From a virus: a stretch of DNA of 51,865 nt. Under the pieces are notes generated by a model that searched no databases, had not been told where the DNA came from, and saw only the letters and a list, made by a program, of their open reading frames with translations. Location: the IMG/VR virus record IMGVR_UViG_3300035156_000063, one strand, 5' to 3'. The stretch's first letter is position 1. Every line of letters begins with the position of its first letter. Below, one piece after another: positions 2,519-51,865 of the stretch. The position numbers and the translations under genes are program-made.

Positions 2519-2644
2519 TTAGATGTAGTGGATGTAAGAGAGAAGGGTTCTGGCGGTATGCCATTCTTCCCGGTTGATTGCACCTTTGCTATACATGTCA
2601 TAAAGCTCAAGTAAGGCATAGGTGTACTGCATACAAGTGAACAT
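2519..2644 (-). CDS. Small hypothetical protein, 41 aa (MFTCMQYTYALLELYDMYSKGAINREEWHTARTLLSYIHYI); first gene of the leftward early block
   Basis: Hand translation. It has a strong SD (CAAGGAGAGCTTA-ATG). Its 5' UTR is homologous to the UTR of the 1842 gene. Confidence 0.4.
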   Translation of the reverse strand: MFTCMQYTYALLELYDMYSKGAINREEWHTARTLLSYIHYI

Positions 2645-3736
2645 TAAGCTCTCCTTGATTGGTGGACTAGACCGGATTCGCACCGGCAGTGGGGCGGCTG
2701 CTTTATCCCCAGAAGAATTACGTGTCTGACACTACTATCTCTAGCCCGTTGACTGGGTATTCAGAAGGGCACTAGCTATGCTGGAAGCGAGGTTGGTTAC
2801 CGCCTTGACTTACAAGCTAATTACCCTTGTGAATACCGCATCCTATTAGTCTTCTACATCCAAGGTACTGACAAATCGTGATAGCTCGCTAGCTGTATGT
2901 GTGCTGCCTTGTTCACACAAAGGGAGCTGGTTTGCTATTAGGATTTGTACTCGACGGGATACGTATGATCGAAGAACAGGATGCAGTTTAGGTTGTTAAA
3001 GAATTTGATACCAAGCTGTAATTATCCATGTCAGTTGTAGACATGTGTCCGCTAACCATCGCTTCCCCTTGTGTCACATACACACACTCAAACACCATGC
3101 CACATGATGGAGACTGGCATGCGATGGCATAAGACAAGGCTTATGTTATTCCATCACTACCAGCACGACACATCATGTATTGATGTAAGGCTAGTGTGTA
3201 TCAAGGTTTGGCTACTGATAGCTCACTTGATATCTAAATTGTTAAAGAGGTAGTTCACACATCACGACGTTGTGTCGCTTATGTTTGGTCCTAACCATGC
3301 TCTGTTAGGCTTCCGGTATTACGTGATAGCTGTTCTGGCTTACGTTCATCTGTCTGCCCCTTGGGACTAAACACTTACTTGCCTAACCATAGATGCCAGT
3401 ATCGCATACTCTTTTGATCCTTGTCAACCCCTTATTTGTCCTGAGTCAATCTACATACAACAGGATGATAGCTCAGACACATACAGCATGCCCTCACATA
3501 TACATAAGAGGTTGGCTAGTTTAAGGAGCATTCAACATGAGGGGTTATCCTCTTCTCACTAAGCGTTGTGTCGGTGAGAGATTCCATTGTGCCTATGTAT
3601 TTGATCTGACGCAAGCATTATTTTGATCTGTGTCAATGATGCCACATCACATCCTCATCTCTATATGTATGTGCGCACGCATGTATACGCGATTAGCACA
3701 TCCCACATGATAGTGTCAACATATATCTTCCAACAC

Positions 3737-3758
3737 TTATCCACAAGGGTTATCCACA
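3737..3758 (+). promoter_or_regulatory. Two perfect direct DnaA boxes (TTATCCACA at 3737-3745 and 3750-3758)
   Basis: Both are exact matches to the 9-mer DnaA-box consensus TTATCCACA, starting 13 bp apart, inside the ORF-free region. Confidence 0.6.
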
Positions 3759-3919
3759 TGCCATTTAAAAGGCATTAGAGGCATCTACAAGGCACGCAAG
3801 GACGAGGATGAAGCAGCACCTTAGAAATAAATGGTGAGCTTGGAGACCCCTTAGAAGCCTTCCAATTGGATGAACATTTAGACAAGATAAGCTATAAGAC
3901 CTGCCTATTTATTAATCAA

Positions 3920-4002
3920 GTCTTATAGAAGACATGTCATTGGTCTTATAGAAGAGTGGAACAGGGTCTTATATAAGAGTTGTTGTAGGTCTTGTATAAG
4001 AC
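3920..4002. repeat. Four iterons with exact 23-bp phasing; 14-bp core GTCTT(A/G)TA(G/T)AAGA(C/G)
   Basis: Cores start at 3920, 3943, 3966 and 3989. The arms GTCTT/AAGAC are inverted repeats, and the 9-bp spacers are not conserved. A half-site TATAAGAC lies at 3893-3900. Confidence 0.85.
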
Positions 4003-4561
4003 TAGTAATGATAGCGCTAACAAGGGGTATTGCCGAAGGCGTTCATAGTAGATAGTTAACGTCGCTGCGCGACATGCATGCTAGGCATAGCGCCTGTAGG
4101 TACAGCAGGTGTGACACAAAGCATATGCTTGGCATGTATTGAGCATGGATGAATGTTAGGGAGCAAGTACATTGCACCGATCTATATAAGTTAGTATGCA
4201 CTTACATAATGCATGGCATATTGTGTGCTATTAGCAAGAAGCATGCCATGTCACTCTTCGCATAACCAGCATTATGTCAAATGCTCATATGGGTAGATGG
4301 AGGATCGAGCAAGGGGTAGGCAGGGGGTTCGATGATGTACTACTGTGTGCATTGCCCCTCAAAAATATCTCACAAAAATTATGCACATCCAAGGGTATGC
4401 CTCGGTATATGCTTGGATGGATACAAATATGCTTATACGTGTGCTTGCACACAAGAGCATTACGTCTTACGTAAGTAGGACAATTGTCCCGCAGGGACGT
4501 AACACAATGAATATACGTAGTATCTGTACGTATAGGGCGACATAACAAACCTAGGAACTAA

Positions 4562-7500
4562 ATGAAACTTGATTTAACAGATACCGCAGGCGGTTACGAC
4601 ATTAGCAGCATTAATAGCAACTTCACTAAGATTGAACAGGAGTTGCAGACTAAGGTGCTATATCGGAATAATCCAGTAGGGGAACCTAATACGATGGAAG
4701 GTGTTCTAGACATGAACAATCACTCCATCATCAATGTAGGTAATATGCAGGGAGGCACACTGGTAGGAGGTACAGCAGAATCTACCAGCTCCTTCCCATT
4801 TGGTCCCATCACTGCTACTAACGTACAAGATGCAATGGAGCAGATTAATGCCCGCATCATTGAAGGAGGGGGTACTGGTGGTACGCCATCTGGTGTGTTC
4901 ACCTTTAATAGCCGTACAGGGGATGTCCTTCTTACTAGTGGGGATGTGGTTACAGCTCTGGGCTTTACACCATCAGCAGGAGGAGGGGGAGGTTCAACAT
5001 CTGCCAATAGCGTATTGAATGTAGCAGCCCTCAGGACAGCTCCATCAGTAGGTGGCACTCAGATCATGACCCGAGGCTATTACACGGCTAGGGATGGTGG
5101 AGCAGCCACTTACTACCTCGATACTACGGATACTACCTCACCAGACAATGGTGGTGACGTCATCGTAGCAAGTGATGGTGGACGATGGAAGCTTGCTAAG
5201 GGAGTGGCTTACAGTGCACGTCAGTTTGGTGCACGAGGTAATAGCACCCTGTCCAGCCCCGGAGCAGATGACACAGTTGCCCTACAGCGCTTTGTTAACT
5301 TCCTTGGCACTGGTGGCTACAAGGGATACATTCCAGGCGGGCGCTATCGTATCACCAAGCGTATTAACATCGCTGACAACTGTTCTCTGTATGGAGATGG
5401 GTGGAAAGACATCCGAGACATCACAGGGTACAACACTCGTAACTGGGCACAGAGCAAAGTATACGGCACCATCATCTATTCCGACTATGTAGATACTGGT
5501 CCAGATACGGCAGTTACTTTCTACATCGAAGGTAATAGCTGCATCATTGAGGATATGGAGTTTGAGACGTTGCAGCCATTGCCGGGACCGGGATGGACTT
5601 GTAATAACACCCCTACCGCAATTTGGTGCTTCCGTGGCGAATACGCTGAACAGGGCGGTAATGGTCTGCTCCTGCGTAACATCATGATCCGTAATTACAA
5701 GAACGGTATTAAGATGATTGGCGCTGCTCGTGCCACCATTGATGGTCTGTTTGGTGAATGCTTCCATAACTTCGTTGACATCACTGCCAACTACGATGTG
5801 GTTCGTATTAACAACGTACACATCAACTTTCCGTTCTACTCTGGTAATTCAGAAGTGATTAAGTACCTCGGGGCCAACTCTGTTGGTATTACATTTGGGC
5901 GTGTAGACAACCCTGTGTGGTCCAACATCTTCATCTTCTACGCTCGTATCGCTATGAAGTTCTATACGGATACGACGCCTACAGGAGGCTTTGAAGGGGG
6001 TGTAACCCAGCGACTACAGATTACCAACCTCGGTATCGATCTGTGTAATGTGGGCTTCTACGCATCAGATGCTATTAGGCTGTCTCTTGCCAACTTCTAT
6101 GTACTGTGTCGCAATGACCCCACTGAGTCGTTTAACAGCACCAGTCGTTGTATTCACAATGCAGGTGTTCTTGGTGGCGGATACGTACCAATTAGTATGA
6201 ACTTGGTCAATGGAGACTTCCAAGGATCGGCTCTCGAATGTATGCGGTTTGACGTGCCGGGAGTAGTTAACCTGAGTAACGTAGTTATCCGTACCTTCAA
6301 TCTGGCTGGTACTGGTGCTCCTGCAATCTCGGTTGGTAATGGTGTTAAGGTGTTTGCTGCTAACGTAGCTCTGGAAGAGCCTAATTCGGCCCCTCTGTTC
6401 CAAGTGTTCGGCACTGGTACTTACAGCGACGCCCACTCGGGAAGTACCGGAGGAACTGGTTCTGGTGTGAGTTCGTTCAACACTCGCAGTGGCGCTGTTA
6501 CTCTTACTGGTACGGACATCGTCAATGCCATTGCAACGACTACGGTTCCTATTAACACCCCAAGCACTTTTAGGGCGACTAACAAAACCTTCCCGACTAC
6601 CGGAACTGGAACTGAGATTAGCTATGATCCTAACTTTTCCTCCGGATATCTGCTTGCATATGATCGAGGTACTAATACGTACAAAGACATGGCAATCAGT
6701 GGTAGGAACCTTACGTTCCAGTCTGGCACTGCTGGGGCTAACCAAGGCTCTTTTGACATCAATGGTAGATTCCTTCTGGGCTATGCTACAAGTATTGGTA
6801 GCCATAAGCTTCAAGTGGATGGTGAAGGATTCTTCTCAGGAGCGCTGTATGCCCTGACTCCTCCAACTAACACTACTGGTACTCGGGTAGCCACTTGTGA
6901 CTACGTGATTGCTAAGGTTGGTTCGGGAGGTGGGGGAGGGGGTGTTACTTCGTTTAATGGAAGAGCTGGTGCAGTAACTCTTACCAATACAGACGTTAAT
7001 GCCGCTTATGGAGCACAGCCCACTTTTACTGGATATCCGGCTATTCAAACAAGCATTGAGGGATTTGGAACTATTAGATCAACCAATACTAGCATTCCAT
7101 CGTCTGGTACTGGCATCGAGATTAGTTACAACTCCAGCCTTGTAGTGGGGTTCCTTACTTGCTATGACCGAAGCGCTGGTCAATATCGAGACTTGGGGAT
7201 CGCAGGTAGGAATGTAACCTTCCAATCTGGTAACGGGGCTAATGCGGCATCGTTTGATCAGAATGGCTCTTTGCTCATTGGTTATCCTAGCACTAATGGA
7301 AGTGGCTACAAGCTTCAAGTTAATAGCCAAATCTATGCGACGTCGGCATCCATTGCTACTTCGGACCGTAGCGTAAAAGAGAACATCTCTCCACTGAAGT
7401 CTGGACTGAAGGAGGTGATGAAACTAAAACCTGTGACCTATACGTTCGTAGAACATAAGGTTCACAACTTCCCTAAAGGTACACAAGTCGGATTTATCGC

Positions 7501-51666: not shown

Positions 51667-51849
51667 TTACAACCTCCTGTATTCAGGAAGGTTAGAAGGA
51701 CGGATGATATATTGGAGTTCGAAGTCAACAGCTTCGACGAACGTAGCGTTACGCTCTCGTTTGATTGAAGTGAGGAACCTGCGTTTCGATGAGTAGACCA
51801 GATTGAATCGGTATCCATCATCATGCAGGAAGACAGCGTCAATAGCCAT
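51667..51849 (-). CDS. Hypothetical protein, 60 aa; runs through the artificial window junction
   Basis: Its ATG (51849, equivalent to position 111) overlaps the stop of the 101-349 gene. This confirms genome continuity across the window ends. Confidence 0.5.
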   Translation of the reverse strand: MAIDAVFLHDDGYRFNLVYSSKRRFLTSIKRERNATFVEAVDFELQYIIRPSNLPEYRRL

Positions 51850-51865
51850 GATTGTACAACTTGCA
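51739..51865. repeat. Terminal overlap copy 2, identical to 1-127
   Basis: Direct comparison of the two window ends. Confidence 0.97.

Follow-up and report, generated by a model that had tools for sequence, protein, structure and literature searches.

The virus of IMG/VR record IMGVR_UViG_3300035156_000063, whose 51,865-nucleotide sequence was analysed in full and is referred to here as the window, carries at positions 3920-4002 an array of four 14-bp near-palindromic cores that match the predicted operator of SdhR, a bacterial regulator of tricarboxylic acid (TCA) cycle genes. We favour the explanation, at a probability of roughly 0.5, that these four repeats are tandem host SdhR-type operators belonging to a DnaA-box docking module that starts or gates phage replication and/or early transcription. 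The identity of the binder is the firmer part of this explanation, and from the sequence of the sites we consider it probable that a host SdhR-type protein is responsible. The same array recurs in dozens of unrelated uncultured phages, no protein family is universal among the ten complete genomes compared, and exact DnaA boxes are strongly concentrated in its vicinity.

The four cores lie at 3920-3933 (GTCTTATAGAAGAC), 3943-3956 (GTCTTATAGAAGAG), 3966-3979 (GTCTTATATAAGAG) and 3989-4002 (GTCTTGTATAAGAC), with starts at 3920, 3943, 3966 and 3989 and thus an exact 23-bp period. The 9-bp spacers between them are mutually unrelated (atgtcattg, tggaacagg and ttgttgtag). Both features had been described in the original prediction, made from the letters of the window, and both were confirmed on the sequence. 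The four cores also supply the three or more phased direct repeats that characterize iteron origins. When a degenerate form of the core was searched allowing two or fewer mismatches, the window gave 11 strand-matches compared with 2.17 ± 1.5 in 100 shuffled sequences, none of which attained 11, and at one mismatch or fewer no match was found in the 51.9-kb window outside the array. Tandem Repeats Finder did not report the array, because its repetition is confined to the cores. Tandem sigma-70 promoters, for which a 23-bp period would equal the start distance between the -35 and -10 elements, were considered as a source of the repeats and rejected, as the hexamers misfit by eye and a promoter scan found no sigma-70-like promoter that overlaps or abuts the array.

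A search for two units at 23-bp spacing identified 37 IMG/VR contigs, and a looser two-unit pattern was found in 63 IMG/VR stretches; across 596 Gb of genomes from bacteria and archaea it turned up in no more than 6 records. By our own calculation chance would provide some 3.6e-15 matches per position, or essentially zero. Of the six genome records, two resemble the array but differ from it in their centre, one is a 6-kb contig of a metagenome-assembled genome (MAG), and three are from Burkholderiales/Oxalobacteraceae; integrated elements in Oxalobacteraceae account for two of the six. After dereplication our set comprised 55 distinct phage arrays of 2-6 copies each, with 172 cores in total. 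The consensus of these cores is the perfect palindrome GTCTTATATAAGAC, in which TCTT.TA.AAGA is invariant and variation is found solely at positions 1, 6, 9 and 14. The cores of the window depart from GTCTTATATAAGAC at positions 6, 9 and 14 alone, all three of which are among the variable positions.

SdhR belongs to the HutC subfamily of GntR-family regulators, and its motif is listed as TCTTATGTCTTATATAAGACATAAGA, with the layout TCTTAT-GTCTTATATAAGAC-ATAAGA (PMC4494728). That listing (Suvorova et al. 2015) cites the 2012 study of Suvorova, Ravcheev and Gelfand (PMID 22505679), which we draw upon through its citation there. SdhR is predicted to repress TCA and glyoxylate genes in betaproteobacteria of the Burkholderiales type. 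Our data show that the 14-bp consensus core of the phage arrays is identical to the core of the SdhR motif. The resemblance extends beyond the core, since the additional half-site of the SdhR motif (ATAAGA following the core, or TCTTAT preceding it) is present in 48 of 85 phage 9-bp spacers where about 1% would be expected by chance, the commonest phage spacer being ATAAGAGTA or its complement. Because the spacers carry these half-sites, the 23-bp unit in many arrays can be resolved into the 14-bp core, the 6-bp extra half-site and a further 3 bp. The prediction had read the period as a phasing of about two helical turns. In a spacing scan with the gap left free between 1 and 30 bp, 23 bp was indeed strongly preferred, making up 41 of the 66 steps, with 30 bp (7 steps) and 22 bp (6 steps) next in frequency, but helical phasing is an incomplete account given the many units with this composite build. 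The main steps (50 of 66, in arrays L079-L092 and others) fit a series of 16, 23, 30, 37 and 44 bp, that is 23 bp plus or minus multiples of 7, and 7 bp is also the interval at which the TCTTAT half-sites recur when the SdhR motif is taken in its extended form; steps of 39 bp, a minor class, lie outside this series.

The exact 14-mer was also found as single sites in two Oxalobacteraceae genomes, one of them that of Sapientia aquatica. The first host site is located between mdh and a gene encoding a GntR+UTRA protein, followed by sdhC (loci L049 and L050), and the second is upstream of the isocitrate lyase gene aceA (L046 and L047). Among sampled genomes the 14-mer is present in 42 of 51 members of this family (82%), in 23 of 81 at the level of the order and in 3 of 301 at that of the class (1%), and the reversed 14-mer used as a control occurred once among the 51 and once among the 81. 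The simplest reading would be that tandem copies of the host operator were taken up separately by unrelated phages whose hosts possess SdhR. A 23-bp tandem also exists on a chromosome: in a Burkholderiales MAG (L042, positions 7101-7137) two perfect GTCTTATATAAGAC sites stand 23 bp apart approximately 30 bp upstream of an H+-pyrophosphatase gene, which would be a possible new member of the SdhR regulon. Three-copy arrays of the SdhR type were further observed in two satellite-like elements integrated in Oxalobacteraceae chromosomes (L044, ~2730-2800; L045, ~2105-2180). In L044, which adjoins prfC, the entire 23-bp unit is repeated, and in L045 two phased copies are accompanied by a third some 37 bp upstream, the array lying downstream of a VapE-like primase/helicase gene. 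Both elements have an HNH gene, and in both the array is placed beside the element's own multiple TGTCAACC repeats and an AT-rich tract, a region that is probably the satellite origin, as origins of satellites are usually found in such a place.

Conservation around the array could be followed in the closest relative of the window (L004/G004). The stretch poor in open reading frames (ORFs) that holds the array has diverged beyond alignment between the two genomes except for a few blocks, namely the pair of DnaA boxes, the cores, a block comprising a fifth site and an AT-rich segment, and an element at 4353-4385 that is described below; the alignment with L004 also shows conservation at 3795-3812 (plus strand), in the interval that separates the boxes from the cores. 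Boxes and cores conserved amid diverged spacers are, as far as an alignment can tell, the classical footprint of functional sites. The claim that the repeats are phased dyad-symmetric protein-binding sites is supported by this pattern, and the conservation of the cores in related phages, which the prediction had named as a check, holds both for L004 and for the wider set in which the motif recurs. The fifth site (3887-3900, ataagcTATAAGAC) is situated 33 bp upstream of core 1 and is decayed, retaining the right half-site alone, and it aligns with an intact GTCTTATATAAGAC in L004. It is followed on the plus strand by a conserved spacer at 3901-3919 (CTGCCTATTTATTAATCAA) in which 18 of 19 columns are identical to L004. 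This spacer falls on the 30-mer with the highest AT content in the ORF-free stretch, and it includes a near-match to an IHF site (AATCAAGTCTTAT), by eye one mismatch from WATCAANNNNTTR. In two marine relatives with approximately 68% TerL identity, a Vibrio-phage record and an oyster-metagenome phage record, no site was found at two or fewer mismatches. The other array-bearing groups have no close cultured isolates, and for this reason their hosts are unassigned.

The second component of the proposed module is formed by two exact DnaA boxes (TTATCCACA) arranged as direct repeats 13 bp apart on the plus strand, at 3737-3745 and 3750-3758. No other exact box occurs in the window. The pair precedes the array by 165-185 bp, and both boxes are retained without change in L004. 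Around 35 dereplicated arrays we counted 44 exact boxes within 400 bp, compared with a single one in the remaining 302 kb, which corresponds to 1.52 versus 0.003 boxes per kb, an approximately 460-fold enrichment. At least one exact box was present within 400 bp at 18 of the 35 loci, some of which have seven. IHF-like sites near arrays were enriched only about 3-fold, and short AT tracts were seen by eye near arrays at other loci. The suggestion that the array serves as origin iterons or as an operator array is thus a reasonable one because two exact DnaA boxes adjoin it, but the phage-encoded binder that was part of the same suggestion is not supported (see below).

Each complete genome has a single array, usually where two gene arms diverge, and at most loci it occupies a divergent intergenic region. 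The array is within 2 kb of the global minimum of cumulative GC skew in 6 of 10 complete genomes, and in three (G004, G008 and G012) it is 0.1-0.3 kb away, with the minimum coinciding with divergent transcription. GC skew was rejected as unconfounded evidence for an origin, G012 being too weak and G014 showing a sharp switch whose sign is the reverse of that of an origin-type minimum. In the latter, an 86-kb phage of 62% GC, positive skew gives way to negative skew precisely where the array and DnaA boxes lie (~82.0-82.5 kb), and the called genes are on the same strand on both sides of the flip, ORF calls being unreliable at 62% GC. Taken together, the DnaA-box enrichment, the single array per genome, its position at the divergence of the arms and the context of the two satellite-like elements lead us to favour a host-factor-dependent origin or a replication-gating module, a role that we advance tentatively and would rate at somewhat under even odds.

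In the mechanism that we envisage, each 14-bp palindrome would be occupied by one SdhR dimer, and the 23-bp step would bring neighbouring dimers into contact so that a single nucleoprotein complex might form. Together with the two DnaA boxes this complex would constitute a docking module for host factors at the point where the gene arms diverge, where it could start or gate phage DNA replication and/or early transcription. By way of the SdhR ligand, the gated step would be coupled to the state of the host TCA cycle.

Several observations weigh against this account. With regard to the host and its regulator, SdhR is itself a prediction of comparative genomics (PMID 22505679, as quoted in PMC4494728), the TCTTAT/ATAAGA half-sites are absent from all three spacers of the window, and the closest isolates by TerL infect Vibrio. 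With regard to DnaA, 17 of the 35 dereplicated arrays have no exact box within 400 bp, and the window has just two boxes, which make a weak cluster. An origin is further disfavoured by the distance of 1.6 kb between the array and the skew minimum of the window (at 2277), which is in any case confounded by divergent transcription, and by the AT scan, in which the best 30-mer reached 80% AT over some 20-30 bp at 3903-3935 and no long AT-rich unwinding element was detected. Finally, in one 112-kb phage (L033) the array occupies a convergent gap, where it follows closely upon a terminator-like hairpin.

The same sites might instead act in transcription alone, with host SdhR on four phased operators forming a switch that represses or insulates divergent early and late promoters until a metabolic signal arrives, and with DnaA serving as a transcriptional co-regulator, not as an initiator. 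GntR/HutC proteins are classically repressors, the array is found in divergent intergenic regions at most loci, and its geometry resembles the lambda OR/OL operators, where palindromes are 23-24 bp apart. Moreover, in three phages (L010, L039 and L037) a consensus sigma-70 promoter (TTGACA-N17-TACAAT/TACATAAT) is located 150-200 bp to the right of the array and drives the gene that opens the array-side arm, a member of the GP88 family (PF17338); a GP88-like gene is also beside the array in L007, L015 and L021. On the other hand, no promoter-like site is present at the array of the window, which weakens a simple repressor-operator model, and distances of 560 bp and 1.35 kb separate the array from the genes closest to it. 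The promoters of the relatives stand 60-200 bp from the array and do not overlap it, the arrays of L033 and L027 are in a convergent and a co-directional gap, respectively, and the 460-fold enrichment of DnaA boxes is a better fit to an origin. We regard a purely transcriptional switch as unlikely.

A second possibility is that the replicating phage DNA works as a sponge, titrating SdhR and DnaA with hundreds of sites so that sdh, mdh and aceA are derepressed and the supply of energy and precursors is raised, in effect a non-coding counterpart of an auxiliary metabolic gene. Such a decoy could be well served by tandem sites close to the perfect consensus, where host sites are single, and by an array that unrelated lineages have acquired without a fixed position relative to genes, including in convergent and co-directional gaps. 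Clusters of DnaA boxes are known as titration devices, as in datA of E. coli. Yet a sponge could be multiple and placed anywhere, and what we find is one array of 2-6 sites per genome, whose strict 23-bp phasing, link to DnaA boxes and position at the divergence of the arms suggest a structured complex acting in cis. This reading is improbable in our view, and there is an equally slender prospect that array and boxes together constitute an 'auxiliary metabolic element', which by titrating SdhR (and DnaA) would derepress succinate and malate dehydrogenase and the glyoxylate shunt and disturb the control of host replication, with no phage protein needed.

The original prediction had looked for the binder within the phage genome, as a dimeric protein escaping recognition, and had proposed among others the orphan 158-aa early protein, in which case the repeats would be iterons or operators of a phage-encoded initiator. 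Their anatomy is comparable to that of the four dyad-symmetric iterons of lambda ori, DnaA boxes are adjacent, and several small unannotated ORFs are nearby. Our searches nevertheless speak against such a protein. In 17 viral contigs with an array, of which 12 are 90% complete or more, the Pfam GntR model gave nothing above its cut-off, while matching in 14 of 14 control genomes, and a six-frame search of the window with host SdhR revealed no SdhR-like frame. Among the neighbours of the window array we found neither a helix-turn-helix or GntR gene nor a Pfam or PHROG initiator of the kind that typically adjoins iteron origins. The 158-aa ORF has a homologue in none of the 17 contigs and the neighbouring 206-aa ORF in the closest relative alone. 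A comparison of ten complete array genomes (36-112 kb, GC 41-62%) gave no protein family present in all of them; polymerase A comes closest (8 of 10), followed by terminase, primase-helicase and ribonucleotide reductase (7 of 10 each). A conserved neighbour gene was likewise rejected as the binder, because iterated hidden Markov models and hhalign show the candidates (the GP88-like family, PF17338; the terS-like c20; the 206-aa ORF of the window; c0; and c18) to be mutually unrelated. An invariant motif in phages with no common candidate, identical in its core and flanking half-sites to a host operator (PMC4494728) that also stands at Oxalobacteraceae mdh/sdh/aceA, makes a phage-encoded binder very unlikely.

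Least probable of all is a pac/cos-type packaging site bound by the small terminase subunit: although the array is 70-750 bp upstream of a terS-like/terL operon in two phage groups, many fragmentary contigs end 0-400 bp from it, and the arrays of L044 and L045 are upstream of an HNH gene, the motif is that of a host operator, is invariant across unrelated terS candidates (c0, c20 and the 171-aa candidate of the window) and so does not co-vary with the TerS family as recognition by TerS would require, the TerL proteins of array phages (417-535 aa) are at best distantly similar, and the window array is 4.9 kb from the gene in the terS position.

With regard to contig ends, the fragmentary viral contigs that start or stop near an array (L009, L030, L032, L024, L055, L073, L082, L087 and others) do so at, for example, position 1, 18 or 25. 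These ends could be assembly breaks at near-identical 23-bp units that vary in copy number, or could reflect a nearby physical genome end; in five complete contigs flagged with direct terminal repeats the array is away from the ends. We also observed a second type of palindrome, TAGGGTTTACCCTA, within approximately 250 bp of the arrays in four unrelated phage contigs (L021, L005, L036 and L006), where it may be the site of another, perhaps host, protein. It is absent from the window.

The window represents the complete, circularly assembled genome of a podophage of approximately 51.7 kb. Its two ends share an exact overlap of 127 bp (1-127 and 51739-51865). It is best explained as a k-mer overlap left by circular assembly, which makes the start of the window arbitrary. 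Its TerL is 68% identical to that of phage records classed in the Zobellviridae (from Vibrio hosts and an oyster metagenome). A rightward arm at 4562-31066 encodes structural and lysis functions, and a leftward arm at 31416-51523 encodes a class II ribonucleotide reductase, MazG, ThyX, an exonuclease, a family-A polymerase, a sigma-like protein, a primase-helicase and a phiEco32-type ligase island. The ORF-poor stretch that holds the module (2565-4561, about 2 kb) is flanked by the leftward 206-aa ORF on one side and by the rightward tail-fibre/late operon on the other, and is the only large non-coding stretch of this tightly packed genome, from which the replication and structural arms diverge. 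L004 has an ORF-poor stretch as well, of about 1.7 kb, whose sequence is not conserved outside the DnaA/SdhR blocks. A nucleotide search of 2600-4600 against GenBank phages gave no match, nor did Rfam and tRNA scans of the ORF-free stretch. Amid this otherwise unalignable non-coding DNA, the 33-bp element at 4353-4385 (which includes CAAAAATATCTCACAAAAATTATGCACATCC) is 91% identical to its counterpart in L004. It occurs once in the window, some 180 bp upstream of the tail-fibre gene, and its counterpart is roughly 65-100 bp upstream of the equivalent gene, positions at which it may be a late promoter or a leader for the phage sigma factor.

If the favoured explanation is correct, the array is a concrete candidate for the means by which uncultured, probably freshwater betaproteobacterial phages sense or rewire the central metabolism of their hosts. 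The phage arrays also offer the first strong independent support for an SdhR motif that had been purely predicted, and the 14-mer, present in 82% of one Burkholderiales family versus 1% of the class, could be used as a host-clade signature for orphan viral contigs. As for the 'missing' binding protein, it is probably not encoded by the phage, which corrects the first reading of this DNA. Host operators in phage genomes are a known device. A literature search confined to the motif string, SdhR/GntR and two run accessions gave no earlier account of phased operators for a GntR regulator of the TCA cycle combined with DnaA boxes in phage lineages that share no conserved protein.

Among known systems, the closest in sequence is the SdhR operator itself, with which the arrays share an identical 14-bp core (GTCTTATATAAGAC) and, in many phages, the flanking TCTTAT/ATAAGA. 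The host sites, however, are single and located at metabolic promoters, whereas the phage sites are present in four copies (2-6 elsewhere), phased at 23 bp, in non-coding DNA next to DnaA boxes. In their architecture the arrays resemble iteron origins such as lambda ori, with its four dyad-symmetric O-protein sites, or plasmid oriV, with its iterons, DnaA boxes and AT-rich region: they have the same phased dyad repeats and adjoining DnaA boxes in one copy per genome. They differ in lacking a cognate initiator gene, either in cis or conserved, and in that the repeat is the operator of a host transcription factor; the window in addition has no clear AT-rich unwinding element. The lambda OR/OL operators, three palindromes between divergent promoters, are similar in the nature of the sites, the spacing of about 23 bp, the divergent intergenic position and the probable cooperativity of the bound dimers, but the window has neither a phage repressor gene nor a promoter overlapping the sites. 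Phages are known to borrow host regulators, including LexA, NtcA, PhoB, DnaA and IHF, as seen in the LexA boxes of temperate phages and the NtcA sites and pho boxes of cyanophages. Here too the operators of a host regulator are placed in a phage genome, tying its programme to the physiology of the host. What sets the present arrays apart is that the regulator would be a GntR protein of the TCA cycle, that the sites form tandem phased arrays and not single promoter sites, that they are accompanied by clusters of DnaA boxes, and that they are distributed among unrelated lytic lineages.
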